From IMG/VR virus record IMGVR_UViG_3300033417_000008, positions 1 to 60,616 of that record: a stretch of 60,616 nucleotides of DNA. The stretch is one strand, 5' to 3'. Position 1 is the first letter of the stretch. Each line of letters opens with the position of its first letter. The stretch comes from a virus. Below are positions 1 to 52,921 of this stretch, piece by piece. The notes under the pieces were generated by a model. It was not told the DNA's origin, ran no database searches, and saw only the letters and a program-made list of their open reading frames with translations. Both the position numbers and the translations under genes were made by a program.

Positions 1-127
1 CGACGGGCGCGAGCGCCGTTGATGTAGCGCTCGTGCGCGTCGTGGATGTGGCGGCCAGCCTTACGGGATCGGCTGTTGTCGCCGCGAGCGCAGAGCGTGT
101 CGTCGAGGGCCAATCGGCACTGACGGG
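1..127. repeat. assembly overlap: 1..127 identical to 60490..60616 (circular closure)
   Basis: Base-by-base comparison of both window ends: identical 127 nt. Confidence 0.95.
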
Positions 128-5018: not shown

Positions 5019-8000
5019 ATGGCGATCAACGTCAACCAGCTGAAGCTCGAGGTGATCGGCGATACCAGCAGAGCCGATAACTCGCTGCGTCAACTCGACG
5101 GCTCCATGCGGGCGGTGGAAGGCAGCGGCCAGAGGGGTGCGGCCAGTGCTCAGAACCTCGCGGGGGCGCTCACCGGTATCGAGGGGCCTGCTGGCCGAGC
5201 GGCTGGCCAGATGCTCGGCGTCAATTCGTCTGTCGCAGCACTCGCTGGCGCTGGCGGGCCAATCATTGCGCTTACAGCCCTGGTCGGCGGATTGGCCACT
5301 GCTGCATTCCAGCTGGGCGCGGCGTGGGACGATGCAACCGACCGGATCCGCATCGGGACGGGTGCCACGGGTACTGCATTGCGTGGGCTTCAGGAGGATT
5401 TGAGCGCTGTCTACACATCGGTTCCTGGTGATCTCAAGACCGCATCTCAGGTCATCGCTGATCTGAACACGCGGCTGGGGCTGACCGGAGAGCCGCTACG
5501 CCAACTGGGCGTTCAGTTGCTGGAGTTCTCGCGCCTGACGGGGACCGACGCGGTCGAGAACGTGCGGCTGTTGACCAGGACCTATGGCGACTGGGGCATC
5601 GCCACCGAGGATCAGAGCGAGGCGCTCGATAAGCTGTTCCGTGCCTCGCAGGTGGCTGGCGCCTCGACCACGCAGCTTCAGACGCTGCTCGTTCAGTACG
5701 GCGCTCCCTTGCGTCAACTTGGTATCAGCTTCGATGAGGCGACCGCGCTCTTGGGCAAGTTCGAGAAGGAAGGCGTCAACACCGAGCTAGTCATGGGCTC
5801 GCTCCGCATCGCCATTGGCAATCTCGCGGCGGCCGGCATTCCGCTGGAGTCGGGCATCCAGGATGTGATCACCAAGATTCGAGACATGGAGGATGCCAGC
5901 GCGGCAACAGCGCTGGCGATTCAGACCTTCGGCGCTCGGGCTGGACCTGACATGGCAGCGGCGATCCGCGAGGGTCGTTTCGAGATCGACTTGTACCTGG
6001 ATGCGATACAGAACACAGGTGAGTCGGTCCAGATCGCAGCAGCCGACACCGACGATGCCGCTCAGCGGATGGAGAAAAGCTGGAAGCAGGTGCAGTTGGC
6101 TGCGACTCCGGCGGGCGAGGCGGTGTTTATCTTCGGCGACATTCTGGCAACGGCAGCGACGGGGCCAGTGGCAGAGTTCGCCGCGAGCCTGAACAACATT
6201 GCGCGTCTGTTCAAGTTGACCGGCGAGGGAGCGATTACCTGGGGCCAGGTCATCGGTCAGGTGGCTCAGGACGTCGGCAATCTCGCGCTACCGGGGCTGG
6301 ACACCACAGGCGCCAAGACGACCGCATCATTCGGGCTTGGCTCAGAAGTTGGCGATCTGCTCGGCGAGATTGGCCGCAGGTTTGAGGCTCGGCAGAACTT
6401 CGATGGGGCGCTTCTGACCCGTGGTCAGGCGGCCCAGAACAAGCAGACCGCCGAGGAGAACTGGCGCATATGGAGCGAGGGGCAGGGTGCGGCCGCGGCG
6501 CCCGAGATCGAGCGGGCCGCCGAGCAGGTAGAAGAGGAGTTCGATAGTGCTGCGGCTCTGCTGGAGCGGGCTCAGAACGACTTTCTGGCTGGCTTCACAC
6601 GGGCGGGTGCTGACCGGGACATCGGGGCAGCGGCGACCAGGAGCCTCGCTTCGCTGGAAGGGGCGCTGAGAGACGCCACTCCTGAGCTGCGCGCTGCAGC
6701 CGGACAGACCGCTGATTCGCTCGTGGCCGAGATGGAAAAGATACTCGGGCCCGAGCGTGGTTCGGAGCTTGGCCGCGATTACGTCGATGCGGTGCTCGCG
6801 GCGCTGGCCGGGGAAGAGGGCGCCCAGGATCGGGCTCGCCAGATCGCCGAGCAGTTCGCAACCGAGGCTGCCGGCGTCAAAGCAGGAGCTCAGTCGGCGG
6901 CCGAGGCGAAGCGGAACCAGGCCGAGCAGGACAAGGCCGTTCGCGAGGCCGAGCGTGTGGTCAAAGAAACTGCGGATACGTGGGCCAAGGCCAACAAGGC
7001 CATCGAGCAGGGGGTCAGGGAACGGGCGGCTGCGGTCGAGGATGCCGAGGGCAAAATTGCTAAGGCTCAGGATGATGAGCGACAGGCGACTGAGGAGCTG
7101 CTGCGCACCCACGGCGAGACGCGGGACATCGACGCCAGGCGCCAGGCGGCTGAATCGTTCGGCCAGACATTCCGATCGATGGACTTCGACGGCCAGCAGC
7201 AGGCAATCGAGGACCTTGACCGTTCCCTCGGCGATCGTGCCTCGTTGGAGACCAGGCGTCAGGCCATGGAGGAATGGGTCCGCGAAGAGAGCGTGGGCTA
7301 TCAACGGTTGGAAGTGGCATCGAACCGACGCAGAGAGGTCGAGGCCACCGATCTGCAACGGACCCGCGAGGACCGCGCCCTCTCGCTGCGCCAGGAACGC
7401 GAGGATTCCGAGGCCAGGCTCAACCTGAACCGTCGAGAGCGCGACTTCAGCCGTTCCACAGGTAGGGACCGCGACGATGCAGCGCGCGCCTCTCTGCGCC
7501 AGGTTGAGGATGCGACTCGCTCCTATCAGCAGCGAGTCGCCGATATCACGCGGCAGGGTGGGCCGAACGTCGGGGCTCAGTTGGCCGATGCCGCGCGCCA
7601 GTTCGGCCAGCAGCAGGCTGACGCTCAGCGGCAGCAGGGACGGGCTGCCGAGGATGCGGCACTCCGAATCCAGCGCCAGCGGGCCGATGCAGCGACAGCT
7701 CAGTCCGACGCCGAGGCCGACCGCGCCAGGCGTCGTGCACAGGAAGCGGCCGACCTGAGCCAGCGGCGGGGTGAACAGAACGCCGACCGCCAGCGAGCAA
7801 ACGACTTTGCCGATGCTGACTTCCGCAAGCGGTCCGAGAACGAGACATCGCTGAAGAATTACCGGGGGGCGCTGGAGCGGCAGTTGCAGGTTGACCGCGA
7901 CACGCAGTCGGAGCAGGAGCGAAAGCGGCAGGAGACCAGGATCGCTGAGACGCTGACGACGGCGACCGACGCGGCGTGGGCGCATGTCGACGCGGTGTAC

Positions 8001-8393
8001 GAGCGCACCTATCAGCGATTGAGCCAACTGTTCACGGATCTGGAGCAGCAACACCCGTGGATCAGCGGCCAACTCGACGTCGAGCAAGCGCTTCCTCGGG
8101 CCTTCGAGCGGCCAGGTGCGGCGGCTGCATCGGGGATCGGGGGAGAGATCGAAGGATTCCTCCGCGATCTCTCTGAGCAGTTTCGCGACCCGACGACGGG
8201 GACCGCTCATTCGCGCTTGGATGAGATCGCGGCGAACACGAAGGCGCCCATCGAGCTCTCGGATATGACGATTGCGAGACTGGCCGAGATCCTCGCGCGC
8301 CGCGCGCCCACTGTGATCACGCTCGACGGAGAGGTCATCGCGCGCAGCACGACGGGCTTCCAAGTTGACGACCTGCGGGCGAGGGCGGGCTGA
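5019..8393 (+). CDS. tail tape measure protein
   Basis: 1124 aa, largest gene; follows the chaperone pair; A/G/L-rich N-terminal half and R/E/D/Q/A-rich coiled-coil C-terminal half. Confidence 0.9.
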   Translation: MAINVNQLKLEVIGDTSRADNSLRQLDGSMRAVEGSGQRGAASAQNLAGALTGIEGPAGRAAGQMLGVNSSVAALAGAGGPIIALTALVGGLATAAFQLGAAWDDATDRIRIGTGATGTALRGLQEDLSAVYTSVPGDLKTASQVIADLNTRLGLTGEPLRQLGVQLLEFSRLTGTDAVENVRLLTRTYGDWGIATEDQSEALDKLFRASQVAGASTTQLQTLLVQYGAPLRQLGISFDEATALLGKFEKEGVNTELVMGSLRIAIGNLAAAGIPLESGIQDVITKIRDMEDASAATALAIQTFGARAGPDMAAAIREGRFEIDLYLDAIQNTGESVQIAAADTDDAAQRMEKSWKQVQLAATPAGEAVFIFGDILATAATGPVAEFAASLNNIARLFKLTGEGAITWGQVIGQVAQDVGNLALPGLDTTGAKTTASFGLGSEVGDLLGEIGRRFEARQNFDGALLTRGQAAQNKQTAEENWRIWSEGQGAAAAPEIERAAEQVEEEFDSAAALLERAQNDFLAGFTRAGADRDIGAAATRSLASLEGALRDATPELRAAAGQTADSLVAEMEKILGPERGSELGRDYVDAVLAALAGEEGAQDRARQIAEQFATEAAGVKAGAQSAAEAKRNQAEQDKAVREAERVVKETADTWAKANKAIEQGVRERAAAVEDAEGKIAKAQDDERQATEELLRTHGETRDIDARRQAAESFGQTFRSMDFDGQQQAIEDLDRSLGDRASLETRRQAMEEWVREESVGYQRLEVASNRRREVEATDLQRTREDRALSLRQEREDSEARLNLNRRERDFSRSTGRDRDDAARASLRQVEDATRSYQQRVADITRQGGPNVGAQLADAARQFGQQQADAQRQQGRAAEDAALRIQRQRADAATAQSDAEADRARRRAQEAADLSQRRGEQNADRQRANDFADADFRKRSENETSLKNYRGALERQLQVDRDTQSEQERKRQETRIAETLTTATDAAWAHVDAVYERTYQRLSQLFTDLEQQHPWISGQLDVEQALPRAFERPGAAAASGIGGEIEGFLRDLSEQFRDPTTGTAHSRLDEIAANTKAPIELSDMTIARLAEILARRAPTVITLDGEVIARSTTGFQVDDLRARAG

Positions 8394-8885: not shown

Positions 8886-9060
8886 CTCATTGGGCGCAGC
8901 AGCCAAGATGCAACCGCTGTTCGGATCGCGGATGGCATTGGTGCTCTCATTGGGCGCAGCAGCCAAGATGCAACCGCTGTTCGGATCGCGGATGGCATTG
9001 GTGCTCTCATTGGGCGCAGCAGCCAAGATGCGGCCGCTGTTCGGATCGCCGATGCCATCG
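8886..9060 (+). repeat. 60-bp tandem repeat, ~2.9 copies (two exact, third 6 mismatches)
   Basis: 'ctcattgggcgcagcagccaagatgcaaccgctgttcggatcgcggatggcattggtg' repeated with period 60; encodes 'IGRSSQDATAVRIADGIGAL' in frame 3. Confidence 0.95.
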
Positions 9061-9329
9061 GTTCTGCCTGGGGCTCATCGATTCTCACCGCCCGTACTCC
9101 TGTTACCCACGATGCCCTCGCCGATCTGCTTGGGCTAGGATTCCAGTCCGCATCTGCCATCGTCCGAACCACGCAGCATCTCACGACAAACTGGAAGGGA
9201 CCGCGAACGATCCTTACGGCGAATCTGGCGGTTGACGATCCGACTGTAAGTGTCCTGGCCAATTTCGCAAGTTACTCCCCTCCATGGGACATCGTCATTG
9301 GACGCGAGGTCCTGACTGTCACCGGCCGC

Positions 9330-11357
9330 GTGAGCGCCACAGTCTGGAGCGTGACCCACGGCCAGCGCGGCACGCCCGCCATGGCCCACTTCGCGGGGTC
9401 AGCGGGCGCTGAGGTCGCGGCGCTCGGCCACGAGATCATCGTCTCTGACGGAGCGGTGACCCGCGATTATTCGGCCCTCGCCTGCATGCTCCACACCAAG
9501 ACGCTGGCGCCCCGTGGCGAGGTCGAGGCCACATGGGAATTCGATACCGACAGCCCTGAGGACTGGCTACCGAATCCTGACTCTATCGTCACCATCACCG
9601 ACATTCAGGGACGTTCCTACCATGGGGGCATCATCGGGCGTGTCAGTTGTCTCAAGCAGGAGGACGGCATCGGCCACCACGTCAAGATCACGGCCTACGG
9701 GCTGGAGACCACTGCGACGTGGGATGGTTACGTCGATTCGCGGATCTGGCCGGCCGCTACGCCGATCCACACCGTGTTCGAGGAGTCGCGCGATGAGCGG
9801 ACCCAGTTCATCGTTCCGTTCAACACCGAGGTCGTTCATGGCGGGGAGCAGATCGGCAGTGATCTTCAGGCCATCGGCCAAGCGCCGCGCCAGCTGTGGG
9901 ACAGCCTATCGGCTCGCGGCGACAACGGGGTGGCGCTCGATTGGGCCGTCTACACCAACCACGACAATGCTGGCGCCTACCTGCACCTTCGCCAGCGTGA
10001 CACGCAGCCGATCCTGAAGCTCCCGATATCCTGCCTCGGGCTGCCGCTCGCATGGGACACGCAGCGCCGAATCAACAAGGTCGTGGTGCGTTACGCTCTT
10101 GGTTACGTTCCCGCTCAGGCCAGCGGCTCGGTTACCAGGTGGCGCTACATAGACGCGGCCAACCAGATCGATAACCTTCAAGCCGCGCAGGAATTGGCCG
10201 AGCAGGCGTTGGCGCTCCTGAATGTGCTGGAGATGCTGACCGACGGCGCGCTGGTTCTAAACGATGCGCGCCCGATCTACGATGAGGCAGGCGACCCATT
10301 TCCGCTATGGCTGATCCGCTCGGGATGGCGGGTCCAGTTGACCGATGATGACCTGCTGCCAATCCTGCCGTATGTGACCGAGCTCCCGATTGACATGGTC
10401 CAGATCGTCGGAACCGACTGTGACCACGAGGCCGAGACCAACTCGCTGACGCTCAGCGACTTCGACGATCCGCCAGCTCGCCATGCGCAGTACGCATGGC
10501 GCGACAAGCAGCGGCCAAACAGCCCGGTTCATGAGCCCATCGCCTCGACTCCGGTGAGCCCGCCGCCTAGCCTGCCGGTGCCGGTCTCAACGAGTCTCAC
10601 GCCGACCGGCGCCAACGGGCGGCTGGGCTGGGATAACGTGGCTGAGGATGCCGACATCGACGGTCCCGTCTATGTGATCGACGGAGGAGATGAGGTCATC
10701 ACCGCGGGCCGAAAGCCCGATCTGCTGATTTCGGGCAATCATCGACTGCTCGGATTCCGTCTGCTGGCCGCCAACTACGAGACCGGCGAGAGCCCGACCA
10801 CGGGAACTATCGAGATCGCCGTCACTTACGCCCACTTCGCCAGCTTCCCGGCGCTCGGGTCTGCGGTCGTCACACTAGTGTTGAACGACGCCGCATCATC
10901 ACTTGTCAATCTATCCGAGGACCCGGGCGGGGCCACGCCGATCATCGACGTTGGCCCAGACCGTACACTTCCCGCGGGCGAGCGTGGGCCTGGCTATCTG
11001 ACGTTCGAGGTCGCCGAGGATCCGGCGCCGACGTTGAAGGGAGCGTCGATTGTGGTACTGCTCCAGAAGACCGAGGGATCGGACCGAGGGGGCACGATGG
11101 AGACGCCGACGATTGTGAGTGTGTCTCCTGCCACAGCACTCGGGGTAACGACGTTCACCGTGACGACGGACCGCCCGTGTACGGCGCAGATCGAATTCGG
11201 GCCTGACGCGAACTACCGGAGCAGGAGCCAGCGGTCTGAGCACTTGCGTAAGATTTCGACGCTCGGGGTGCCGGGCATTCCGAGCGGCACCCACTACCGC
11301 GCCCACGTGTTCGACGCCCACGGCAACACCGCGTCGAGCGCGGACCAGACGCTCTAG
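9330..11357 (+). CDS. tail tip / minor tail protein (Tal-like) with C-terminal FN3-like domain; probably extends 5' to ~8859
   Basis: 675 aa from GTG 9330, but the same frame is open from 8838; C-terminus 'TFTVTTDRPCTAQIEFGPDANY..GIPSGTHYRAHVFDAHGN' is FN3-like. Confidence 0.75.
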   Translation: MSATVWSVTHGQRGTPAMAHFAGSAGAEVAALGHEIIVSDGAVTRDYSALACMLHTKTLAPRGEVEATWEFDTDSPEDWLPNPDSIVTITDIQGRSYHGGIIGRVSCLKQEDGIGHHVKITAYGLETTATWDGYVDSRIWPAATPIHTVFEESRDERTQFIVPFNTEVVHGGEQIGSDLQAIGQAPRQLWDSLSARGDNGVALDWAVYTNHDNAGAYLHLRQRDTQPILKLPISCLGLPLAWDTQRRINKVVVRYALGYVPAQASGSVTRWRYIDAANQIDNLQAAQELAEQALALLNVLEMLTDGALVLNDARPIYDEAGDPFPLWLIRSGWRVQLTDDDLLPILPYVTELPIDMVQIVGTDCDHEAETNSLTLSDFDDPPARHAQYAWRDKQRPNSPVHEPIASTPVSPPPSLPVPVSTSLTPTGANGRLGWDNVAEDADIDGPVYVIDGGDEVITAGRKPDLLISGNHRLLGFRLLAANYETGESPTTGTIEIAVTYAHFASFPALGSAVVTLVLNDAASSLVNLSEDPGGATPIIDVGPDRTLPAGERGPGYLTFEVAEDPAPTLKGASIVVLLQKTEGSDRGGTMETPTIVSVSPATALGVTTFTVTTDRPCTAQIEFGPDANYRSRSQRSEHLRKISTLGVPGIPSGTHYRAHVFDAHGNTASSADQTL

Positions 11358-11361
11358 GATA

Positions 11362-12444
11362 TTGAGGATGTGCTGGCGCGCCGTGGTTGTTGCAACGACT
11401 TTGATCGTTGCGGCGGCGTTATTTAGTCTTGAGCTCAGCAGAGGATGGGGGGATCCGTTGGCGATCTGGCAAGACGGTGATATCGTCGTTTCTTTTCGTG
11501 AGACCAACGCCCCGACTAATGTTCGCCTGGCAGCATGGTCTGCCGACGGGGCTACATTTCGCGGCACAGTGGACGTCTCACCTCCCATCGGAGATTCAGA
11601 CTCAGCGCCGCAACACCTAACTATGTACAACAACCTGCTATACGGGCGCGTCGCAACGGGTTCCTCTCGGCGCATTGTTCACATGGATGGAAGCGCTGCT
11701 AATGCAGATGACTTCTACGCTGTCGGATCTGGCGGCGGCGGCGGCCTGGCGGTGGATAGCGCTGGGAAATTCTATGTCGGTGACTCATCTGGATCTCCAG
11801 ACTTCGACTACCAGATAGCTAAGCTCAATACTGACGGATCGGTAGATTCTCTGTACGTGTATGACCCGTTCGACATAAATATGATCGGAGACGGTGGCGG
11901 TTCTAACATTGACGCAAATACTGTCCGTGTCAATCCTTCTGGCACCATTGCCTACTTCACAGATGCTCACGGAGATGTCGAACTCTCTAGCAGTGAATTG
12001 GCACTTAACCGCCTCGATCTGGTTACAGGAAGCCTCCTGACTTATCTGGATTTCACTTCGCAATTGACGAATCCGCGATGGCTGCAAAACTTTGCGATAG
12101 GTCCTGATGGCAGAATATGGGGCTGTTACCAGGACACAGCTGATGGGCAGAGAATCTTTGTAGCCGATCCGGACGGGACCGTGGTTCAAGATTGGTTCAC
12201 CCTCGCAGATAACTTCCTCACCGAGCTCCTTGCTTTGCGCACTGATGGAGCGCTCCTGGCGATCAACTGCAACGAGTTCCCTGGTCCTGTAAGCCGTATT
12301 CGGGCATACAACGAGAGCGGTGCGCAGCAATATGTGATCAATTACTCAGAGGACGAACTGGGACAACCGGCATCTGGTCTCGTGTTCGTGCCACCTGCGT
12401 CCACCGTCCGCCGACCTCGCGTCCAGATCGTCTGGCCATTCTAA
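11362..12444 (+). CDS. beta-propeller-like repeat protein with N-terminal hydrophobic segment (receptor-binding candidate)
   Basis: 360 aa; 'VVVATTLIVAAALF' TM/signal; repeated 'D..G..YV.D'-type blades (AVDSAGKFYVGD, IGPDGRIWGC, ADPDGTVV); visibly more AT-rich than neighbours. Confidence 0.55.
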   Translation: MRMCWRAVVVATTLIVAAALFSLELSRGWGDPLAIWQDGDIVVSFRETNAPTNVRLAAWSADGATFRGTVDVSPPIGDSDSAPQHLTMYNNLLYGRVATGSSRRIVHMDGSAANADDFYAVGSGGGGGLAVDSAGKFYVGDSSGSPDFDYQIAKLNTDGSVDSLYVYDPFDINMIGDGGGSNIDANTVRVNPSGTIAYFTDAHGDVELSSSELALNRLDLVTGSLLTYLDFTSQLTNPRWLQNFAIGPDGRIWGCYQDTADGQRIFVADPDGTVVQDWFTLADNFLTELLALRTDGALLAINCNEFPGPVSRIRAYNESGAQQYVINYSEDELGQPASGLVFVPPASTVRRPRVQIVWPF

Positions 12445-12479
12445 ACAGGCATAATCAGAGCAAAAGAGAGGAGACTACC

Positions 12480-12710
12480 ATGGACCAAGCACAACTCGCG
12501 GCTATCGTCGTAGGAATCGTGGAGGCCATCAAACAGCTCGGGCTCGTGGACAGCCGTTGGCTGCCGCTCGTGTCAGGAATAGCGGGCATGCTCGTCATGT
12601 GCCTGGCAGCGGGCTTCTCAGCGCCGTCGATCCTCGCCGGTCTGGCCATCGGCCTCGGCGCCACCGGCATCTACGCGGCAGCCAAGGCTCTCGCGTCGAA
12701 GAGGGCCTGA
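12480..12710 (+). CDS. holin
   Basis: 76 aa; two hydrophobic helices (AAIVVGIVEAI; LPLVSGIAGMLVMCLAAGF..ILAGLAIGLGATGIYAAA); basic C-terminus KALASKRA; AGAGGAG RBS. Confidence 0.65.
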   Translation: MDQAQLAAIVVGIVEAIKQLGLVDSRWLPLVSGIAGMLVMCLAAGFSAPSILAGLAIGLGATGIYAAAKALASKRA

Positions 12711-12809
12711 AAAGCCCGATGCAACCGTCCGATGGGCCGCTGCCGCGACTCGACGCCCATAGGGCGCTGGACCAAGCCGGCGGCCTCGCCGGGATAAGGT
12801 AGGGTCTTC

Positions 12810-13736
12810 GTGCAGGGTGGTCTGATCCAGGTCAGCGATCAGGCGATGGTCGCTCTCGCAGGTCTTGTGCTCACCGGGATGGGATCACTCGCCCTCTGGA
12901 TACGCGCGGTCCAGGACACAGCCAGCGCTCGCGAGTTGGCGCGTGTTGCGGGCCGGGTAGTCCGCGAGGGACCCAAGGCGGTGATGCTCCACCGCCTCGC
13001 ACGTATCGAGGCCTTTGTCGATGCGCTCGACGACCGCAACAACGCTCGAGATCGAAGCCGCATGGCCACCGCCCGCGAGGCGCTGCTCGGCGGGAATCCC
13101 GTGCACTGGTCGATCGAGGCCAAGCCGCACGCCGAGCGATGGGTGCATGACGAGTTCTCGACCGTGCACCTGAGCTCAGAGGGTATGGGGCTGGTGGCGC
13201 GAGACCTGCGGCGAAACATCGCCGACGGCCACCTCACCGACGATGAACAGGTCCACGCCGAGAATGGTCTGCGTGTGATCGAGGGGGCGTTGGCCTCGCG
13301 AGAACGACTCCGTCAGAGCGCACAGGAGATGACGCAGGACCGCAAGCTTGCGAGGCTACTGCTGATAGAAGATGATCACGCGGCCGCGGAGCTTACGCAG
13401 ATCGTGCTGCGGGTCACGGGCTACGAGGTGGCGGCTGTAGGATCGGCAGAGGCGGCCATGAGCGAGATCCACCGTGCACACGGTGCTGGGCAGCCGTACC
13501 AGATCCTGGTGATAGATCTGGTACTCCCGGACGTCTACGGACTGGAGCTGATCCGTCGGCTGCGCGCATCGGTCCTGACGGAGTCCACCCCGATTGTGGC
13601 GATCAGCGGGGCGCGTGGCGGCGAGTACGCTATCACGGCTGGCGCTGATATGTTTGTGGCGAAGCCGTACACGCCTACCGAGATCCGAGAGGCGGTGGCG
13701 GCTGTCCTCCAGGAAGGGAGTCGAGATGTCCATTGA
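12810..13736 (+). CDS. membrane-anchored protein with C-terminal response-regulator receiver (REC/CheY-like) domain
   Basis: N-terminal TM 'MVALAGLVLTGMGSLALWI'; REC motifs 'LLLIEDD', 'ILVIDLVLPD', 'IVAISG', 'FVAKPY' in canonical order. Confidence 0.75.
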   Translation: MQGGLIQVSDQAMVALAGLVLTGMGSLALWIRAVQDTASARELARVAGRVVREGPKAVMLHRLARIEAFVDALDDRNNARDRSRMATAREALLGGNPVHWSIEAKPHAERWVHDEFSTVHLSSEGMGLVARDLRRNIADGHLTDDEQVHAENGLRVIEGALASRERLRQSAQEMTQDRKLARLLLIEDDHAAAELTQIVLRVTGYEVAAVGSAEAAMSEIHRAHGAGQPYQILVIDLVLPDVYGLELIRRLRASVLTESTPIVAISGARGGEYAITAGADMFVAKPYTPTEIREAVAAVLQEGSRDVH

Positions 13737-13812
13737 GGTTACTGCGTGGTCCCTCCTGGCAGCGGTGCTTGTGGCGGGCGCTCTCATGGTTTGGGCGGCG
13801 CACAATGCGTGA
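13726..13812 (+). CDS. 28-aa single-TM micropeptide
   Basis: 'MSIEVTAWSLLAAVLVAGALMVWAAHNA'; AGGAAGGGAG RBS; overlaps the stop of the REC gene. Confidence 0.4.
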   Translation: MSIEVTAWSLLAAVLVAGALMVWAAHNA

Positions 13813-13888
13813 GCTGTTCTACCCGGTGTGCGGTCTGATCGCTGTGCTGTGCGCCTTCGGTCATTACCTGGATTTCAGGAGCCACTAG
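13805..13888 (+). CDS. 27-aa hydrophobic micropeptide
   Basis: 'MRELFYPVCGLIAVLCAFGHYLDFRSH'; ATGCGTGA overlap with the preceding micropeptide. Confidence 0.35.
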   Translation: MRELFYPVCGLIAVLCAFGHYLDFRSH

Positions 13889-13912
13889 GCTTGGAGTAGA
13901 GAAGGAGATGCC

Positions 13913-14605
13913 ATGATGAGAGTGCTGCTGGGGATCGCCGTGGTTACCGCGCTGATTGTTGGCCTGCTTGGCATTGGCCCGTCGCTGCACGCCCCGGCGC
14001 ATGCCGCTGGCGCCTGCACGGTGAGCAACGCTGAGCTTCCACCGGATCAGGAGGAGCAGAACCTGCTGAACGAGATCAACAGATATCGGTCGTCGCCCTA
14101 CGTGTGGTCCAACACGCTAAGCCGAGCGGCCGTATGGCAGGCTAAGGACATGGCGGCCAATGATTACGTCGGCCACACCGATACCCTTGGCCGTACCTTC
14201 CCCACGCGACTGACTGACTGCGGCCACAGCCCGACGATCCCCGCTGGGGAGAATGTCACCGCGGGCCGCACCCAGTACTACGGGGACACCAACACGGTTA
14301 GCTACTGGTTCTTCACGACCGCCGATTTCCACAACCTCGTGGGGGCCGAATTCACGCACGCTGGCATCGCGCACGTCTACAATGCCCTCTCGACCCAAAA
14401 GAACTACTGGGTGCTCGTGGTCGGCGTCGAGGGCTCAGCAGGACCAACCCCGACTCCATGGCCCACTCCCACGAATGTTGTCCCTACAGCAACCCCGTTG
14501 CCTCCGCCCACCACAACTCCTGCGCCACGGCTCCGCCTGCTCGACTGTCGCGTGCTGGATGGCACCGTCCCTGGCCCATTCACTCTCGACTGCCTGGCGC
14601 CATGA
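13913..14605 (+). CDS. secreted CAP/SCP/PR-1 (YkwD-like) domain protein with Pro/Thr-rich linker
   Basis: Signal peptide 'MMRVLLGIAVVTALIVGLLGIG..AHAAGA'; 'YVGHTDTLGRTFPTRL..CG..AGENV' and 'HNLVGAEFTHAGIA' CAP-type motifs; 'PTPTPWPTPTNVVPTATPLPPPTTTP'. Confidence 0.7.
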   Translation: MMRVLLGIAVVTALIVGLLGIGPSLHAPAHAAGACTVSNAELPPDQEEQNLLNEINRYRSSPYVWSNTLSRAAVWQAKDMAANDYVGHTDTLGRTFPTRLTDCGHSPTIPAGENVTAGRTQYYGDTNTVSYWFFTTADFHNLVGAEFTHAGIAHVYNALSTQKNYWVLVVGVEGSAGPTPTPWPTPTNVVPTATPLPPPTTTPAPRLRLLDCRVLDGTVPGPFTLDCLAP

Positions 14606-14660
14606 GGCCGGCCACAGCCGATCCGATGCAAATCGAATTCTGGGTGCTCGTGGTGACTGA

Positions 14661-14963
14661 GTGATGCTTGGCTGGCTGAGCAATCTATTCTCCCCCTCGC
14701 AGTTCGAGCGGGAGCTCGGCTATCAGGCCCGCATTCGCGCCCTCTCAGCAGAGGTTAAGCGGCTCACACTGGCGAACGGGCAACTCGACTCGGGCGAGGA
14801 CTTGTTGGAGCTGGTCGATTTCTGGCGAGAGGCGTATGACGCGTCCGAGCGCCAACTGGCGCTGTGCAGATCTCGCACCCAGCCGTACACTGAAGATGAG
14901 CTAGACGAACGGGAACAGCGCATCCTAGATCGAGCACGAGAATTGAGGAGGATTAAGACATGA
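14661..14963 (+). CDS. hypothetical coiled-coil protein
   Basis: 100 aa ORF-track ORF; charged heptad-like sequence; no motif. Confidence 0.5.
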   Translation: MMLGWLSNLFSPSQFERELGYQARIRALSAEVKRLTLANGQLDSGEDLLELVDFWREAYDASERQLALCRSRTQPYTEDELDEREQRILDRARELRRIKT

Positions 14964-15271
14964 GCAAGCTTGCGAAGGCAGGAACGAACGCGGCAGTCAA
15001 TGCGGTAGACGTGGGGGCTGCGCTGGCAATCAGCGCCATCGACGCGGCGACTGAAGTCGGCGTGAATGGCGTCAAGGAGCTGGTCGCCGTGGGGGAGACG
15101 CTGGCTTCGGGCGGCGTCGGTGCTGCGGCAGGATCAGCCAAGGTGGTGCTCGCCGAGGTCGAAGAGGCACGGAGCGAGATCCTGGCCGCGATCAAGCGCT
15201 ACCAGACGCTGGTGACCGGCCGCCTGCGGAAGCTGCTCGACGAAGCAGCGGATGCGATCCCAATCGGGTGA
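14960..15271 (+). CDS. hypothetical A/V/G-rich protein
   Basis: 103 aa; ATGA overlap with upstream gene. Confidence 0.5.
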   Translation: MSKLAKAGTNAAVNAVDVGAALAISAIDAATEVGVNGVKELVAVGETLASGGVGAAAGSAKVVLAEVEEARSEILAAIKRYQTLVTGRLRKLLDEAADAIPIG

Positions 15272-15546
15272 GCGCATGGACATTCGGCCGTCGCGAGGCG
15301 GCGGATGGGACGGAGACGCTTGCATTCCGCCACAGCTCCCGACGGTATCGCGACGGCACGATTACCGAGGCCGTCGAGCTGGACATCCTGCTCGACGGCG
15401 AGATCGTGGGCAGGACCGTGCTCGACCTGGGTCACGATGAGGGGCGCGATGGCGTGGCGGACCTGGCGGTGAGCGCGCGCATCGTCGGATTCGGCCCGAT
15501 GGGACCGGAGAGAGCGCGCACGCTCGGGTTCGACACGGACGGATGA
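15268..15546 (+). CDS. hypothetical protein
   Basis: 92 aa; start overlaps upstream stop. Confidence 0.5.
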   Translation: MSAWTFGRREAADGTETLAFRHSSRRYRDGTITEAVELDILLDGEIVGRTVLDLGHDEGRDGVADLAVSARIVGFGPMGPERARTLGFDTDG

Positions 15547-15547
15547 G

Positions 15548-15778
15548 ATGGCAGCGGCGATCTTCCACGGCACCGAAGCGGAGGGGCTGGAGCTCCATGC
15601 CGCTGTGCGTGGGAAGGGCTGCTGCGCCGACGGTGGGGACTGTAGACCCGAGCGAATCTGTACAGCCTGTCAGTTGTTGTTCGACCAGAATGCGCTCGAC
15701 CACTTGCTGTACGCCAGGCGGCTGAGCGGCTTATGGTGGCGAGCGGAATGGCGCAGAGGAGTGGAGGAGATGGATTGA
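15548..15778 (+). CDS. hypothetical Cys-containing protein
   Basis: 76 aa ORF-track ORF, abuts upstream stop. Confidence 0.4.
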   Translation: MAAAIFHGTEAEGLELHAAVRGKGCCADGGDCRPERICTACQLLFDQNALDHLLYARRLSGLWWRAEWRRGVEEMD

Positions 15779-16134
15779 TCACAGCGCGGAAGCTCGAGTG
15801 CAACGTCTGCCGGCGAATGCGCGGCGAGCAGGTGATGAGACGCGACCTGAGACACAGCACGAGGGCGAACGCGCACTCGGACCCATCTCTGGGGCTCCTG
15901 GGCTGGATCTGTGATGACTGCTGGCACCGATGGTTGGACCGCGAGGCTGCCCGATCCGCATTGGGCGAGCAGCACTACCAGGTCACGCTCGGGCTGCTTT
16001 GCTTCGGGTTGGTGATCCGTGATGGCAGGTGCATAGAGGTTACGCATGTGGGGCCGCGGAGGTGGCAGGGACGGACCGAGGCGGAGATTCGGCGGGTGAT
16101 CTCTGAGTGTGGAGGCACCATTGACCCTGTTTGA
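15775..16134 (+). CDS. hypothetical zinc-ribbon protein
   Basis: TTGA overlap start after GGAGGAG; 'CNVCRR...CDDCWHRW'; the ORF track gives a longer 15733 start. Confidence 0.5.
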   Translation: MITARKLECNVCRRMRGEQVMRRDLRHSTRANAHSDPSLGLLGWICDDCWHRWLDREAARSALGEQHYQVTLGLLCFGLVIRDGRCIEVTHVGPRRWQGRTEAEIRRVISECGGTIDPV

Positions 16135-16135
16135 C

Positions 16136-16198
16136 GTGTTGGTGGTAGCGTTGGGGCTGGCGCTCGGGATTGCCGTGCTGGCGTGGAGGAGCAGATGA
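16136..16198 (+). CDS. 20-aa hydrophobic micropeptide
   Basis: GTG start; '(M)LVVALGLALGIAVLAWRSR'; its TGA forms ATGA with ATG 16195 of the next gene. Confidence 0.3.
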   Translation: MLVVALGLALGIAVLAWRSR

Positions 16199-16503
16199 TC
16201 TACACAGACGCGAAACGGGCAGAGTGTTTCCCTCCAGGTGCATTCATACGTGAGGAGTTAGAGGCACGAGGGGTAGCTGCGGATAACATGACAGACTACT
16301 TGGCCCAGGAGCTCTTCGTCAGCCGCAAGATGGCCGAACAATTACTGCGGGGGGCAAGACCTCTCCTGAATGGGGAGGCACTGCGATTGGGAGAACTCTT
16401 TGGTACGGGGCCGGTGCTCTGGGTCAACCTGGATGAGGCATGGGGAAGCTGGCTGCACTGTAAGCTTGCGCTTCAGAGTCCACCGCATACGGATACCAGA
16501 TGA
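16195..16503 (+). CDS. HigA/VapI-like XRE-family HTH protein
   Basis: 'PPGAFIREELEARGV..YLAQELFVSRKMAEQLLRGARPLLNGEALRLGELFGTGPVLWVNLDEAW' follows the HigA antitoxin pattern; ORF track start 16183. Confidence 0.7.
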   Translation: MIYTDAKRAECFPPGAFIREELEARGVAADNMTDYLAQELFVSRKMAEQLLRGARPLLNGEALRLGELFGTGPVLWVNLDEAWGSWLHCKLALQSPPHTDTR

Positions 16504-17315
16504 TCGCCCACGGCGTGTGCATCGACCAGGCCAATCGGGCGAATTGCCCGAGCATTGATCACCTTCAGCGACTCGGAGCTACATGCGTTCGGCTACTGCC
16601 GCGCCCGACCGAGGAGTTCGGATCGTACATGGCGCAGCTGCGGCAGTGGGGCATCCGGTCCATCTTCGTTCTCACGCCCGAGTGCTTCCCCGACGACGGA
16701 CGGACCTGGGAAGAGTGGACTACTTGGTACGTGACCACATACCGGCCCGACGTGGTGCTGATCGGAAACGAGCCCGACGCATACATCTACACCGCCGAGC
16801 ACGATAGCTCATGGGTAGTCGGCCCGGACCAGTACCGCCTTCTCTGGGACCGCCTGGCGCCAGCGGTGCAACGGGCTGGGACCGGCGCGCTCATGGGCAT
16901 CGGCGGCCAGATGGGGTGGGATGGCCAATGGCTCCGTGAGCTGTGCTTCGGCTGGCGACCGCAGGGGGCGACCTACGTGGCGCTCCATTGCTACCCCGAC
17001 CCGTTTGACCTCTACCAGGTGCAAAGCACCCAGAGGGCGATCAAGCTTCTTGAGGAGCTTACCGAGCTGAAGGTCATCATCACCGAGTGGACCGTGGCCG
17101 ACTGGTGTATGGTCGATTGGCTGGAGATGGTGAAACGAAGGTGTGATTACAGCACAATCTATAGTTGGGGCGACGGCGCAGGCCATATGATCGCGAAATA
17201 CGTCGAGTCGAATGGTGTTGCTGATTGGGAATGGTTACCTACAGCATATCTATTAGCTGGTTGTCTGCGAGATGCTTCCTATCGATGGGAACAACGCCCA
17301 GAACTTCGACGGTAA
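16500..17315 (+). CDS. glycoside hydrolase, clan GH-A (TIM barrel) type
   Basis: 'VVLIGNEPD' (acid/base NEP motif) and 'KVIITEW' (nucleophile Glu) about 100 aa apart; ATGA overlap. Confidence 0.55.
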   Translation: MIAHGVCIDQANRANCPSIDHLQRLGATCVRLLPRPTEEFGSYMAQLRQWGIRSIFVLTPECFPDDGRTWEEWTTWYVTTYRPDVVLIGNEPDAYIYTAEHDSSWVVGPDQYRLLWDRLAPAVQRAGTGALMGIGGQMGWDGQWLRELCFGWRPQGATYVALHCYPDPFDLYQVQSTQRAIKLLEELTELKVIITEWTVADWCMVDWLEMVKRRCDYSTIYSWGDGAGHMIAKYVESNGVADWEWLPTAYLLAGCLRDASYRWEQRPELRR

Positions 17316-17613
17316 TGTGTCGCCATTGAGCAGTCCGTCCCGTACGAAGCAGATAGATCGTGCCACAAGAGACACCGAAGGTTTCAGAGATCACCTTGAT
17401 TCCTACCCCGTCGCGGTACGATTGCAAGACTTCACGTACAATCTGTCGAACACCGACCGTGCGTCGTCCTCGCGGATTATCTGCACCGTCATCCGACCGC
17501 CGGCCCTTGGAGCGCCAGCAGCTCCAGCTCAGCCGCGTCGTCCTCAGCGGCAGAGACGAATGTGCAGCAGAAACACCAACGATCCCCACGTTGCTGGCAC
17601 CAGGCCACATCAA
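17239..17613 (-). CDS. HTH protein; true start uncertain (probably only the C-terminal ~70 codons)
   Basis: 'GIKVISETFGVSCGTIYLLRTG' HTH-like; the 5' part overlaps 17489..17725 in another frame. Confidence 0.3.
   Translation of the reverse strand: MMWPGASNVGIVGVSAAHSSLPLRTTRLSWSCWRSKGRRSDDGADNPRGRRTVGVRQIVREVLQSYRDGVGIKVISETFGVSCGTIYLLRTGRTAQWRHITVEVLGVVPIDRKHLADNQLIDML
17403..17492 (-). pseudogene. truncated copy of cassette gene B (29 codons)
   Basis: ATGA-coupled to 17489..17725; 'MTVQIIREDDARSVFDRLYV' parallels 'MTVHISRDENGGAQSVIDAYMV' of 29075..29344, then a stop. Confidence 0.35.
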
Positions 17614-22198: not shown

Positions 22199-23017
22199 AT
22201 GGCAGCACTCCCCGAGGGGCTCCTGATCTCGGCAGCCAAGCTCTCCGGCACGCCCTACGAGTGGGGCGGCAACGGCCCGGGCAGCTTCGACTGCTCGGGC
22301 TACGTCCGCCACGTCGCCGCCGAGCGCGGGGTGCCTCTGCCCGATGACGTGCGGACCGCGGAGCAGATCGCCCTCTACTGCCCCGAGGTTTCCTGGGGCG
22401 AAGTCCAGCCCGGCGACCTGCTATTCCTCAATGACCCGCCGGACCACGTGGCCTTCTCCCTCGGCGAGGACTCGGGCCGCGTGTGGCAGGCGACCCCGCC
22501 AGCAGTCGTGGAAACGGTGATCCGCAATAACGACTACTGGCAGAGAAAGCTCATCCTCAATCCCAGGCGCCTGCCCGGCGTACCCGCAACCCCACTCGTC
22601 ACCGTGGCTGACACTCAGTTTGCCCAGCAGCAAGTAATGGATGTGGTGACCAACTACGCGAGGCTGTACGGCGTCGATCCGCGCGTGGTGGGTGCTGTCT
22701 GCTGGCAGGAGAGCGGGTGGAAGAATCACCTGCGGCACGCGGACGGCACCGGGGTGGGGCTGTTCGGCCTTGACGCCTCCGGCGGGCTCATCGAATTCGA
22801 GCGCTGGTCGAGATCGACGTTCGGCCGTGGCGATGATACTGGCTCGCTGCCCCCGGTGCTCCAGATCGAGTTCGTCTGCGACTGGTTCGAGCGCAAGATC
22901 GCAGCCTACGGGTTGGAGCGGGCTGTACGCACCTGGCACCGGGGGCCGACGCTCTGGAATGACGCTCGCGGTGCGAGTTACTGGGCGTCGGTGTCAGCTC
23001 TCATGGATCGACTCTAG
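22199..23017 (+). CDS. two-domain endolysin: NlpC/P60 endopeptidase + SLT-type lytic transglycosylase
   Basis: 'GTPYEWGGNGPGSFDCSGYVRHV..GDLLF..PDHVAFS' (NlpC/P60 Cys/His) and 'VCWQESGW' (SLT catalytic Glu-Ser). Confidence 0.85.
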   Translation: MAALPEGLLISAAKLSGTPYEWGGNGPGSFDCSGYVRHVAAERGVPLPDDVRTAEQIALYCPEVSWGEVQPGDLLFLNDPPDHVAFSLGEDSGRVWQATPPAVVETVIRNNDYWQRKLILNPRRLPGVPATPLVTVADTQFAQQQVMDVVTNYARLYGVDPRVVGAVCWQESGWKNHLRHADGTGVGLFGLDASGGLIEFERWSRSTFGRGDDTGSLPPVLQIEFVCDWFERKIAAYGLERAVRTWHRGPTLWNDARGASYWASVSALMDRL

Positions 23018-43285: not shown

Positions 43286-43626
43286 TGGCAGCAGCAAAAC
43301 TCGCAAACCCGAGCAAGACCATCGGGGAGTACATCCGCTCCGAGATTGCGAAGGCGGCGGCTTCGCGTGAACCGGTCAGCCTGGCGGGGCTGGTCGAAGA
43401 CACGGTCGCCCACTTCAGGGCGCAGCCGAAATTTCTCGAAGCCTACTTCGCGCGCAACGGGCCCTCGCTCATCCACGAGATGGCGCGAAACATACGACCA
43501 CGCATGTGTCACTTCTGGAGCGCTCTACTCAGGCTTAAACAAGCGGACTGCCGCCTTATACTTTGCCTATTGTGTCCACACTACGTTGTTCTGAGGACAT
43601 GGGGGTACAATCCTCGGCATGACTGA
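43282..43626 (+). CDS. hypothetical protein (3' third runs through an AT-rich stretch; true end doubtful)
   Basis: 114 aa; ATGA overlap. Confidence 0.4.
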   Translation: MMAAAKLANPSKTIGEYIRSEIAKAAASREPVSLAGLVEDTVAHFRAQPKFLEAYFARNGPSLIHEMARNIRPRMCHFWSALLRLKQADCRLILCLLCPHYVVLRTWGYNPRHD

Positions 43627-52036: not shown

Positions 52037-52918
52037 ATGGGCATCATCTACGGACCAAACACCATCGAGGGCGGGATTGGGCCATACGTTGGCGCGACCG
52101 AGCCCATCGAGGGGACTGACGAGACACAGACGCTGACTATCGGCGGCACCCCGACCGGCGGGGACTTCAAGCTGGCGTTCCAGGGGTTCGTGACACCCGC
52201 TATCGATTGGGACAGCACCACGAGCACGTTCCTGGCCAACATCAATACCGGGCTCCAGGGGCTGGCCGCTGTCCAGTTGCTGTCGTTCATCAACATCACG
52301 TCGGGGACATTCCGGCTCCGCTACCGTGGCCAGACGACCGCGGTCATCACGTGGAGCTCGGTGAACACCACGCTGCGGGACCGAATCGATACCGCCCTTG
52401 AAGCGCTGCCGAACATCGGGGTATCGGGGGTTGCCTGCGCTGTTGTGACCAGCGGCACTGCACCGGCGCTCGTGACGATCTCTGTGACGTTTGCGGCATT
52501 CGAGCCGCAGCCACTCATTGAGATCACGGACGTGCGGGTGGTGCGCGACGATGACACGATCACTGATCCGACCATCTCTGCCGCGACCACGACGGCAGGC
52601 ATTCAGATGCCGTCGATTGGCAAGCTCGGGGTGGTTGCGACCGACGTTGACCTGGTCGCAGGGATCGGGGGGGCGCTGCTGACCTTCAGCGGGGCGAACC
52701 TCGCAGCCAAGGCGCAGCCGCTGATCACTGTGGCCGAGAATGCGCTCACGGGGACCGACCCCACGGTTGCAATCGCCGAGACAACTCCGGGGGTGACCGC
52801 GGCATTCCGCGGAGCGCTTCCGGGTGCTGAGGCGGTCGATATCGTGGCGGCCATCCGCTACGTCAACGAGGGTACGGCGCAGGCGCCGACCTGGGAATCC
52901 GTAGCGGCGGGCGCATAA
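52037..52918 (+). CDS. repeat-domain virion protein, paralogue 1 (capsid decoration candidate)
   Basis: ~50-aa modules 'LTIGGTPTGGDFKLAFQGFVTPAIDWDSTTSTFLANINTGLQGL'; C-terminus 'YVNEGTAQAPTWE'. Confidence 0.5.
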   Translation: MGIIYGPNTIEGGIGPYVGATEPIEGTDETQTLTIGGTPTGGDFKLAFQGFVTPAIDWDSTTSTFLANINTGLQGLAAVQLLSFINITSGTFRLRYRGQTTAVITWSSVNTTLRDRIDTALEALPNIGVSGVACAVVTSGTAPALVTISVTFAAFEPQPLIEITDVRVVRDDDTITDPTISAATTTAGIQMPSIGKLGVVATDVDLVAGIGGALLTFSGANLAAKAQPLITVAENALTGTDPTVAIAETTPGVTAAFRGALPGAEAVDIVAAIRYVNEGTAQAPTWESVAAGA

Positions 52919-52921
52919 CCG

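Follow-up and report, generated by a model that had tools for sequence, protein, structure and literature searches.

The DNA analyzed here, called the window, is the whole 60,616-nucleotide stretch of the IMG/VR record IMGVR_UViG_3300033417_000008, which belongs to an uncultured HK97-type tailed phage. Positions 12810 to 13736 encode a protein of 308 amino acids (aa), hereafter TM-REC, in which a single transmembrane (TM) helix and a helical region precede a receiver domain (REC) of the response-regulator type, and the gene lies beside that of a holin. The initial annotation of this locus, made from the letters alone, had placed the open reading frame (ORF) at exactly these positions on the plus strand. 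The features assigned to it are as follows.

12796..12803, plus strand: Shine-Dalgarno (SD) sequence AAGGTAGG, 6 nt before the GTG, read from the sequence
12810..13736, plus strand: gene of the TM-helical-REC protein, 308 aa, GTG start; from the ORF call, the codon log-likelihood and the ENA copy
12846..12908, plus strand: single TM helix, aa 13-33 (MVALAGLVLTGMGSLALWIRA), with many small residues; Kyte-Doolittle 19-aa maximum 1.97
12909..13349, plus strand: orphan helical region, predicted to be cytoplasmic, aa 34-180 (147 aa); no homologues, helical in the AlphaFold2 (AF2) model
13353..13712, plus strand: REC domain, aa 182-301, OmpR/PhoB-like in sequence; Pfam, PDB and NCBIfam matches
13515..13517, plus strand: codon for the predicted phospho-acceptor, D236; this Asp pairs with the phospho-Asp of solved receivers and falls in an invariant column of our receiver alignment (A2)
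13371-3, 13374-6, 13605-7 and 13662-4, plus strand: codons of the other active-site residues D188, D189, S266 and K285, respectively

The receiver domain and the membrane anchor of TM-REC

The C-terminal part of TM-REC matches PF00072 (Response_reg) over aa 184-296 with an E value of 8.2e-17 (61.8 bits against a cutoff of 30.2), covering 109 of the 111 profile positions. The profile search proposed in the initial annotation thus gives a score far over the threshold, and the motifs read there are real: IEDD at residues 186-189, VIDLVLPD at 234-241, AISG at 264-267 and AKP at 284-286. Among the solved receivers that could be aligned from the PDB, the best is 3t6k (E 1.6e-14), accompanied by MtrA (7e-12), RegX3, CtrA, AdeR and PhoB. 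The top ranks in NCBIfam are the receivers of PhoB, CtrA, OmpR, CreB, CseB and MtrA, with E values of 1e-13 to 1e-16 (1.9e-16 for PhoB and ~4e-13 for MtrA, CseB and OmpR), and the scores fall short of every equivalog cutoff by more than 200 bits.

The acidic pocket, E187-D188-D189, aligns with the DD pair of 3t6k, MtrA and RegX3 and falls in a near-invariant column of A2. In addition to D236, S266 is found at the Thr/Ser position, F282 as the aromatic switch, K285-P286 as the Lys-Pro pair, G267 at T+1 and P240 at D+4. A receiver lacking any one of DD, D, T or K is classified as a pseudo-receiver, and true receivers mostly carry Ala or Gly at T+1 (PMC12632262). Because all the landmark residues of this definition are present, the REC domain of TM-REC is, as judged by its residues, a true receiver that should be competent for phosphorylation. 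In the single-sequence AF2 model, the predicted local distance difference test score (pLDDT) is below 50 across REC and the order of strands and helices is fitting; the (beta-alpha)5 fold is taken from the alignment.

No output domain, whether DNA-binding, enzymatic, defence-related or other, was found in TM-REC with Pfam, PHROGs, NCBIfam or PADLOC, in agreement with the initial annotation, which had listed neither a DNA-binding nor an enzymatic one. Assignment to a defence or anti-defence function was rejected, the PADLOC match being at chance level only. The winged-helix domain Trans_reg_C is absent and REC is located at the C-terminus rather than at the N-terminus, which distinguishes the protein from regulators of the OmpR/PhoB family. 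It also differs from single-domain regulators, which are composed of a receiver only, by 180 extra N-terminal residues including the TM helix.

The hydrophobic stretch at aa 13-33 is the sole one in the protein, consistent with the single N-terminal TM helix noted initially. There is no Lys or Arg residue in aa 1-12 and there are four Arg residues in aa 35-55, so that, by the positive-inside rule, the protein is predicted to adopt an N-out/C-in topology, with the rest of the chain including REC in the cytoplasm. The region after the TM helix, which had been called unassignable, proved to be an orphan. A PDB sequence search with the N-terminal region yielded chance matches only (E ~1), and an exhaustive phmmer/HMMER search over 1.84e9 representatives retrieved the region itself and one spurious repeat protein. 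This repeat protein, P0012 (Calx-beta/T9SS adhesin), was rejected, its match being the sum of 11 weak repeats. Pfam gives no match outside REC at E<=0.1, and Foldseek against PDB and BFVD gives none at E<=0.001, returning generic helical hairpins only. The mean pLDDT of the AF2 model is 42 for the full protein and 54.5 for aa 34-180 alone; the latter region is all-helical and is confident only at aa 123-180 (pLDDT 76-87), which form a helical hairpin leading into REC. No HisKA/DHp or Hpt module was found upstream of REC by Pfam, PDB or fold search, although the power of this result is low since the model is poor.

Long spurious ORFs arise in genomes rich in guanine and cytosine (GC), and the anchor and the receiver are separate genes in another phage lineage described below. 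On these grounds the TM-REC ORF could be suspected of being non-coding or mis-assembled, for instance two genes joined by a frameshift error, a suspicion that we find hardly credible. The coding signal is strong and uniform in frame, the ribosome-binding site (RBS) is good and the domain match is significant. Under a codon model derived from the longest genes of the phage, TM-REC scores 107 bits, or 0.35 bits/codon, to be compared with 0.29-0.38 for structural genes, 0.14 for the downstream CAP gene and 0.08 for the gene at 11362..12444. The same sequence is also present in two assemblies from different assemblers: a MEGAHIT-style contig of 60,533 bp from an independent ENA assembly (k141_4379239) agrees with the window at 100% identity over 6.9 kb and yields the same 308-aa product. 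Because the RBS, the codon score and the identical ORF in the independent assembly agree, a high-GC shadow ORF and a frameshift artefact can both be dismissed. Its core-like codon usage further indicates that the receiver gene is long-resident rather than a freshly acquired moron.

Kinases and receivers in this and other phages

The contig has an exact 127-bp terminal overlap (window 1-127 = 60490-60616), which makes it a complete genome of ~60.5 kb, either circular or terminally redundant. Overlaps of this length are typical of circular contigs assembled with k=127, so that the contig does not fix where the genome physically ends. In this complete genome, a whole-proteome Pfam scan detected no HisKA, HATPase_c or Hpt domain and no second receiver. 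The gene set scanned was a codon-model call with gap filling by every ORF of at least 90 aa, examined as concatenated pseudo-proteins. A six-frame phmmer probe from two kinase cores found nothing in the window and did detect kinases beside control regulators. The earlier statement that the genome encodes no histidine kinase is thus borne out; the cognate kinase of a canonical two-component system is missing, and with neither a phage kinase nor an Hpt protein available any phosphoryl input must therefore come from the host.

Receivers are indeed uncommon in phages, as had been stated qualitatively, since only 85 of 50,697 phage records give a receiver match at E<=1e-3. IMG/VR was surveyed with A2 and one narrow motif, [LIV]DL[VM]LP[DG]x[DSY]G, which does not amount to a census. 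Twenty-one of the 24 loci obtained are ordinary OmpR-type regulators of ~230 aa in which REC is N-terminal and a TM helix is lacking, and a kinase is located next door in at least 10 of them. GenBank contigs labelled 'Bacteriophage sp.' were considered as the source of a third example and rejected, all four of those sampled being kinase-linked OmpR-type operons. All 25 of these regulators from IMG/VR and GenBank have an N-terminal REC and an output domain, with a detectable neighbouring kinase in at least 14.

The other three IMG/VR loci (L024-L026; contigs of 41-60 kb, 61-62% GC) carry a stand-alone receiver of 141 aa. The same lineage includes L027 (IMGVR_UViG_3300005842_000013, cassette at L027:7733-8887), L028 and L031-L034. 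Its receiver matches PF00072 with an E value of 6e-18 and, composed of this domain only, qualifies as a single-domain receiver. A gene for a protein of 86-87 aa with one TM helix ends 7 nt upstream of the receiver ATG in L024-L034. The 86-aa product has its TM helix at the N-terminus, without Lys or Arg before it, followed by a positive stretch and a charged helical tail. The lineage therefore seems to have the same layout of TM helix, cytoplasmic helix and REC as the window protein, split over two genes.

The gene directly 3' of the split receiver encodes a Peptidase_M15_4 endolysin (Pfam E 2.9e-7, over the threshold; phrog_465 E 6.7e-28 and 4.2e-27), and a tape-measure-like gene and a minor tail gene are located upstream of the cassette. 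In the L028 variant, an extra ORF of 56 aa with two hydrophobic segments, holin-like in appearance, is inserted between receiver and endolysin. A search of 5.8 billion proteins retrieved further members of the split-receiver family at 96-73% identity, all of 141 aa, and on their contigs, several of which come from soil, the arrangement is conserved: an 80-87-aa coiled-coil protein, the 86-87-aa TM protein, 7 nt, REC and the next gene. The most divergent member, L031, has a different next gene, the N-terminus of which is weakly SleB/Hydrolase_2-like. A swap of lysin type is tentatively suggested by this sole PDB and Pfam match, which is sub-threshold (E 0.08-0.09) and covers a 58-aa fragment.

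The ratio of nonsynonymous to synonymous substitution (dN/dS) lies at 0.07-0.17 in the receiver and at 0.20-0.43 in its TM partner, with dS up to ~1.7 (saturated synonymous divergence), and the residues DDD, D, S and K are invariant in the split receivers. These values point to strong purifying selection on the split receiver. The survey of gene neighbourhoods suggested at the outset has thus brought to light an unrelated lineage with a receiver between a one-TM protein and an endolysin, the fused gene itself having no relative, and the key Asp, the conservation of which had been named as a check, is retained in both A2 and the second lineage.

No further tblastn match of the window proteome was found in the 16-kb L027/L028 loci or in the short L031/L032 contigs. 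A comparison of the two lysis-cassette receivers gives 21.5 bits, whereas the window REC scores 31.6-51.3 bits against 13 of 13 bacterial-type receivers. A homologous relation of the fused N-terminus to the split 86-aa anchor was considered and rejected (BLASTP E 0.15, hhalign probability 0.7%), and the likeness is architectural only. Because no other detectable gene is shared and the window receiver is nearer to bacterial ones than to the split one, the simplest reading is convergence, in which a membrane-associated lysis module acquired a receiver on two occasions, as a fusion in one case and as a pair of genes in the other.

A short similarity between the two anchors may be recorded separately. 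An Arg-rich patch of 11 residues at aa 40-50 of TM-REC (12927-12959), ARELARVAGRV, resembles VRDLVRIVGRS at aa 67-77 of the 86-aa protein of L027. The patch is partly invariant in the TM86 family of these proteins and is the sole similarity between the fused and split anchors (E ~0.09-0.15). It could be due to chance or represent a receiver-docking motif.

Neighbouring genes and the phage genome

The block around TM-REC and the putative endolysin gene comprise the following features.

11362..12444, plus strand: signal-anchored putative beta-propeller protein, 360 aa; weak SGL/NHL/delta-60 matches (E 0.004-0.05), TM segment at aa 7
12480..12710, plus strand: holin of the A118/Hol118 type, 76 aa, three hydrophobic segments, RBS GAGAGGAG; PF06946 and phrog_1299
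13726..13812, plus strand: micropeptide 1, 28 aa, one TM helix, ATG; start overlaps the REC stop (ATGTCCATTGA)
13805..13888, plus strand: micropeptide 2, 27 aa, one TM helix, ATG; start overlaps the stop of micropeptide 1 (ATGCGTGA)
13913..14605, plus strand: secreted CAP/YkwD-like protein with a signal peptide and a Pro/Thr-rich tail; PF00188 E 2.2e-8, TIGR02909 YkwD E 4.6e-6
22199..23017, plus strand: NlpC/P60 peptidoglycan endopeptidase; PF00877 E 1.8e-14, RipC/p60-like in NCBIfam

Gene order runs from the tail-tip proteins, which end at 11357, through the beta-propeller gene, the holin gene, a 99-nt spacer, TM-REC and micropeptides 1 and 2 to the CAP gene. The holin matches PF06946 with an E value of 2.3e-5 (25.1 bits against a cutoff of 22.4) and phrog_1299 'holin' with 4.7e-14, so that the gene directly before TM-REC is what the initial annotation took it to be; the two overlapping TM micropeptides and the secreted CAP-domain protein that it had described were likewise recovered. 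Neither micropeptide has a family match. Micropeptide 1 has a strong SD sequence, GGAAGGGAG, within the REC gene, and from the overlapping starts and stops TM-REC appears to be translationally coupled to both micropeptides.

Folding of the holin-REC spacer is no more stable than that of shuffled sequence (z = 0.88), and a regulatory RNA, terminator or repeat at this position was rejected, as Rfam had no match and only trivial repeats are present. A scan of 9000-17500 gave no sigma-70-like promoter, and of the six terminator-like matches not one separates holin, REC and CAP; both scans assume sigma-70-type signals.

The beta-propeller gene, situated between the tail genes and the holin gene, has the poorest codon adaptation of the block (0.08 bits/codon) and is probably a recently acquired envelope protein gene. 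The CAP protein has an N-terminal hydrophobic segment. Its signal peptide ends in HAAGA-C, a possible lipobox, and it shows weak matches to the divisome-associated lipoprotein DalA and to spore YkwD. A fragment of 1,428 bp from a sibling sample (L002) differs from the window by a single nucleotide, which changes Ala to Ser in the CAP signal peptide. An imperfect direct repeat of 31 nt (77%) is present at 14391-14421 and 14624-14654, with the second copy just past the CAP stop re-encoding the CAP strand '(E)FWVLVV'; it may have been left by recombination when the CAP 3' end, which encodes the Pro/Thr-rich tail, was replaced or extended.

The NlpC/P60 gene is a lone plus-strand gene adjoining a block of small minus-strand genes, and the C-terminal half of its product contains a 'WQESGW' motif and a weak FlgJ-like match. 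It is the likely endolysin and the sole recognizable candidate, detached from the holin and ~8.5 kb downstream. The term 'lysis region' used in the initial annotation is thus appropriate in so far as TM-REC lies beside a holin, but there is no compact cassette and the lysin candidate is remote.

Landmarks of the rest of the genome are listed by window position.

5019-8393: tape measure (Pfam scan)
29328 and 35698: SNF2-type helicases (Pfam scan)
30812: DNA methylase (Pfam scan)
40020: UvrD helicase (Pfam scan)
41495: Rv2179c-like exonuclease (Pfam scan)
46025: terminase (tblastn)
47626: portal (Pfam scan)
49633: S78 protease (Pfam scan)
50484: HK97 capsid (Pfam scan)

The genome contains no tRNA gene. 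The phage has no close cultured relative, its capsid protein being at most 33-43% identical to those of phages of many phyla. Neither blastn nor tblastn against the 50,697 phage records found a relative of the phage or of the TM-REC gene, and scans of IMG/VR with a tail protein and the whole TM-REC protein found none either; further copies of the fused gene come only from the same phage in sibling ENA samples. The CAP protein has one weak match to Actinomadura (30%). Together with the RipC/p60-like lysin and the A118-type holin, this match is compatible with a high-GC Gram-positive host, though it is not decisive.

Three further observations concern other parts of the genome. A 592-aa protein at 43619-45397 on the plus strand, upstream of the terminase gene, combines an AAA/ABC-like P-loop region with a GNAT acetyltransferase domain, an unusual combination in phages. 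Two consecutive post-capsid proteins at 52037-53701, also on the plus strand, contain internal repeats of the form 'GGSFT(L/V)TF...(A/D)WD(S/A)TAAE(L/I)Q' and may be capsid decoration or fibre proteins. Finally, a 106-aa protein at 16183-16503 on the plus strand resembles the helix-turn-helix antitoxins of the HigA family (TIGR02607, E 1.4e-7, under the curated cutoff), and its gene overlaps by 4 nt the start of a 271-aa ORF (16500..17315) with a weak glycosyl-hydrolase-core match (E 0.045).

Proposed function of the tethered receiver and comparison with known systems

We tentatively propose, with a probability of roughly 0.45, that TM-REC is a membrane-tethered phospho-acceptor of the lysis module, which would be fed by host kinases or acetyl phosphate and would modulate the triggering of the holin. 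The protein would be inserted N-out/C-in, with the helical stalk and REC on the cytoplasmic side of the membrane, beside the holin and the co-translated micropeptides. D236 would receive its phosphoryl group from a host histidine kinase or from acetyl phosphate, with the small G267 at T+1 keeping the site accessible. Phosphorylation would then switch the alpha4-beta5-alpha5 face via S266 and F282, and the resulting change in conformation or dimerization might pass through the long helix of aa 144-179 to the TM segment. If the association of this segment with the holin or the micropeptides were altered, hole formation could be delayed or licensed, and the time of lysis would follow the phospho-state of the host envelope or energy metabolism. 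Presumably, the L027 lineage would follow the same logic with two polypeptides, a one-TM helical anchor and a free receiver. The link to lysis, which the initial annotation had offered as an idea, gains comparative support from the second lineage, the receiver of which is under purifying selection and has an invariant active site.

Several points weigh against this proposal. An 'output' role of the N-terminal 180 aa, which have neither a homologue nor a confident fold, is conjecture. The TM-helical parts of the fused and split forms have no detectable homology. The 86-aa partner in L027 is holin-like by position and features only, matches no holin family and has one weak Rz-spanin-like match (E 0.03). 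In the window phage, the endolysin candidate is not adjacent to the holin and TM-REC genes, and the beta-propeller and CAP proteins flanking these are envelope proteins with an unclear relation to lysis. The hints at the host are weak and of actinobacterial type, so that no candidate kinase can be named, and the survey of IMG/VR relied on a single narrow motif.

TM-REC could instead be a phosphate sink or decoy, a tethered receiver that docks to membrane histidine kinases, drains or blocks phosphoryl flow and blunts the host response. A receiver that is an orphan, has its active site intact and lacks a recognizable output domain would suit this role, and the tether would concentrate it near membrane kinases. 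Its OmpR/PhoB-type sequence resembles the receivers of the envelope regulators MtrA, CseB, OmpR and BaeR, although a specific resemblance to one host regulator could not be shown. Phage interference with host two-component systems is known (PIT4, PMC10714779), and bacterial single-domain receivers act as phospho-hubs or sinks (MrrA, PMC5964349). Genes for host takeover, however, are usually early, whereas TM-REC closes the late structural block, next to the holin gene, and a sink explains neither the conserved placement between TM protein and endolysin in the second lineage nor the coupling to the TM micropeptides. We rate this reading, the main rival, as rather unlikely, while noting that it is not exclusive with a role in holin triggering.

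Two other explanations seem to be weaker. The gene might be cargo with a membrane function outside lysis, such as host motility, division, surface remodelling with the CAP protein or superinfection exclusion, its position beside the holin being incidental. The block 11362-14605 does hold several moron-like envelope-directed genes, of which the beta-propeller and CAP genes are poorly codon-adapted, the endolysin is encoded elsewhere and the N-terminal domain is uncharacterized. Nevertheless, the codon usage of TM-REC is core-like, and the recurrence of an orphan receiver in the compact TM-protein/REC/endolysin cassette of an unrelated lineage argues against coincidence, which makes this explanation improbable in our estimation. 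The REC fold might also serve, independently of phosphorylation, as a dimerization or protein-binding scaffold of a structural lysis or membrane protein. Many receivers work without phosphorylation and pseudo-receivers are common (PMC12632262), and the phage encodes no kinase. TM-REC retains, however, all five catalytic residues, the small T+1 residue and the Pro at D+4, and the active site of the second lineage is invariant despite a dS of up to ~1.7 and a dN/dS of 0.07-0.17, which would be unexpected if phospho-chemistry were dispensable. Such a scaffold is accordingly quite improbable.

The proposed phospho-acceptor of the lysis module can be compared with several known systems. CheY, which acts on FliM, and DivK are single-domain regulators acting by protein-protein contact. 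Similarly, the Myxococcus single-domain receiver EpsW regulates a membrane phosphoglycosyl transferase by direct binding (PMC12802240). TM-REC resembles these proteins as a true receiver without a DNA-binding or enzymatic output, the output presumably being contact with a (membrane) partner, but differs from them by its N-terminal TM and helical extension of 180 aa, its phage origin, the lack of a genomic kinase and its place in a lysis module.

Lambda S107 and P1 LydB are antiholins. In T4, RI and RIII act with holin T as antiholins and lysis-inhibition sensors (PMC11413866). TM-REC shares with the antiholins the character of a small membrane-associated regulator beside a holin, its gene being located 99 nt downstream on the same strand, and the proposed signal-responsive timing of lysis. 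Unlike T4 RI, which senses in the periplasm, its sensor is predicted to be cytoplasmic and phospho-dependent; it has no sequence or domain relation to the antiholins, shows no homology to a known one and matches no PHROG 'lysis' or Pfam lysis family. The cytoplasmic 'Receiver' region of the N4 pinholin gp63 is so named by label only and contains no CheY-type receiver (bioRxiv 10.1101/2025.11.12.688109). Yersinia RoeA controls a lysis cassette and has no receiver.

Sinorhizobium CheY1 is a phosphate-sink receiver. TM-REC would be similar to CheY1 and to Caulobacter MrrA (PMC5964349) as an orphan receiver taking phosphoryl groups from kinases; those proteins are soluble, chromosomal and have known cognate kinases, whereas TM-REC is membrane-anchored, viral and located beside a holin. 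The phage quorum receptor VqmA-Phi of VP882 (PMC10426928) and PIT4 of LSL4, which acts on two-component systems (PMC10714779), are likewise phage components plugging into host signalling, but they have no receiver domain, lie outside lysis cassettes and differ in fold and mechanism. Ordinary OmpR/PhoB regulators, including the PHROG 731-like ones on phage-labelled contigs, are the closest sequence family of the REC domain; unlike them, TM-REC has neither a winged-helix output nor an adjacent kinase. The cREC domain of jumbo phages is a divergent receiver-fold domain linked to NAD+/ADP-ribose-processing enzymes (Iyer et al. 2021, PMC7824862). It is also a phage-encoded receiver fold without a kinase, but the REC domain of TM-REC is a conventional PF00072 domain, and no NAD+/ADP-ribose-processing gene was found in the proteome scan.

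Full-text literature searches found no CheY-type receiver described in a phage lysis cassette or as a regulator of a holin, and exact phrases such as 'membrane-anchored response regulator' occurred in no paper of the library searched. Its plain PF00072 domain notwithstanding, TM-REC seems to fit none of the classes of canonical two-component regulator, single-domain regulator, hybrid-kinase remnant or known antiholin.

The timing of lysis sets the burst size and fitness of a phage. Hardly any of the signals that phages read for this timing are known outside the lysis inhibition of T4 and N4. Two-component signalling is the main sensory system of bacteria, and a receiver in the lysis cassette would tie the lysis decision to it, with D236 as a concrete, mutable switch. 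A wider claim, which we regard as somewhat doubtful, is that tailed phages have at least two independent times wired a CheY-type receiver into the lysis cassette, fused to a single-pass membrane anchor in the window phage and paired with one in the L027 lineage, so that phosphoryl groups from host histidine kinases or acetyl phosphate gate holin triggering. If true, lysis inhibition would have an analogue based on a phospho-relay, and a class of antiholins or lysis-timing sensors not recognized before would be added to the known ones. Taken together, the fused and split versions make a 'Rosetta stone', which predicts a physical interaction of anchor and receiver. If TM-REC is a kinase sink instead, it would be an anti-signalling factor of a type new among viruses, and could potentially be used to silence membrane kinases. 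In both cases, the protein extends the known receiver architectures by one with an N-terminal TM anchor, a C-terminal REC and neither a kinase nor an output domain.

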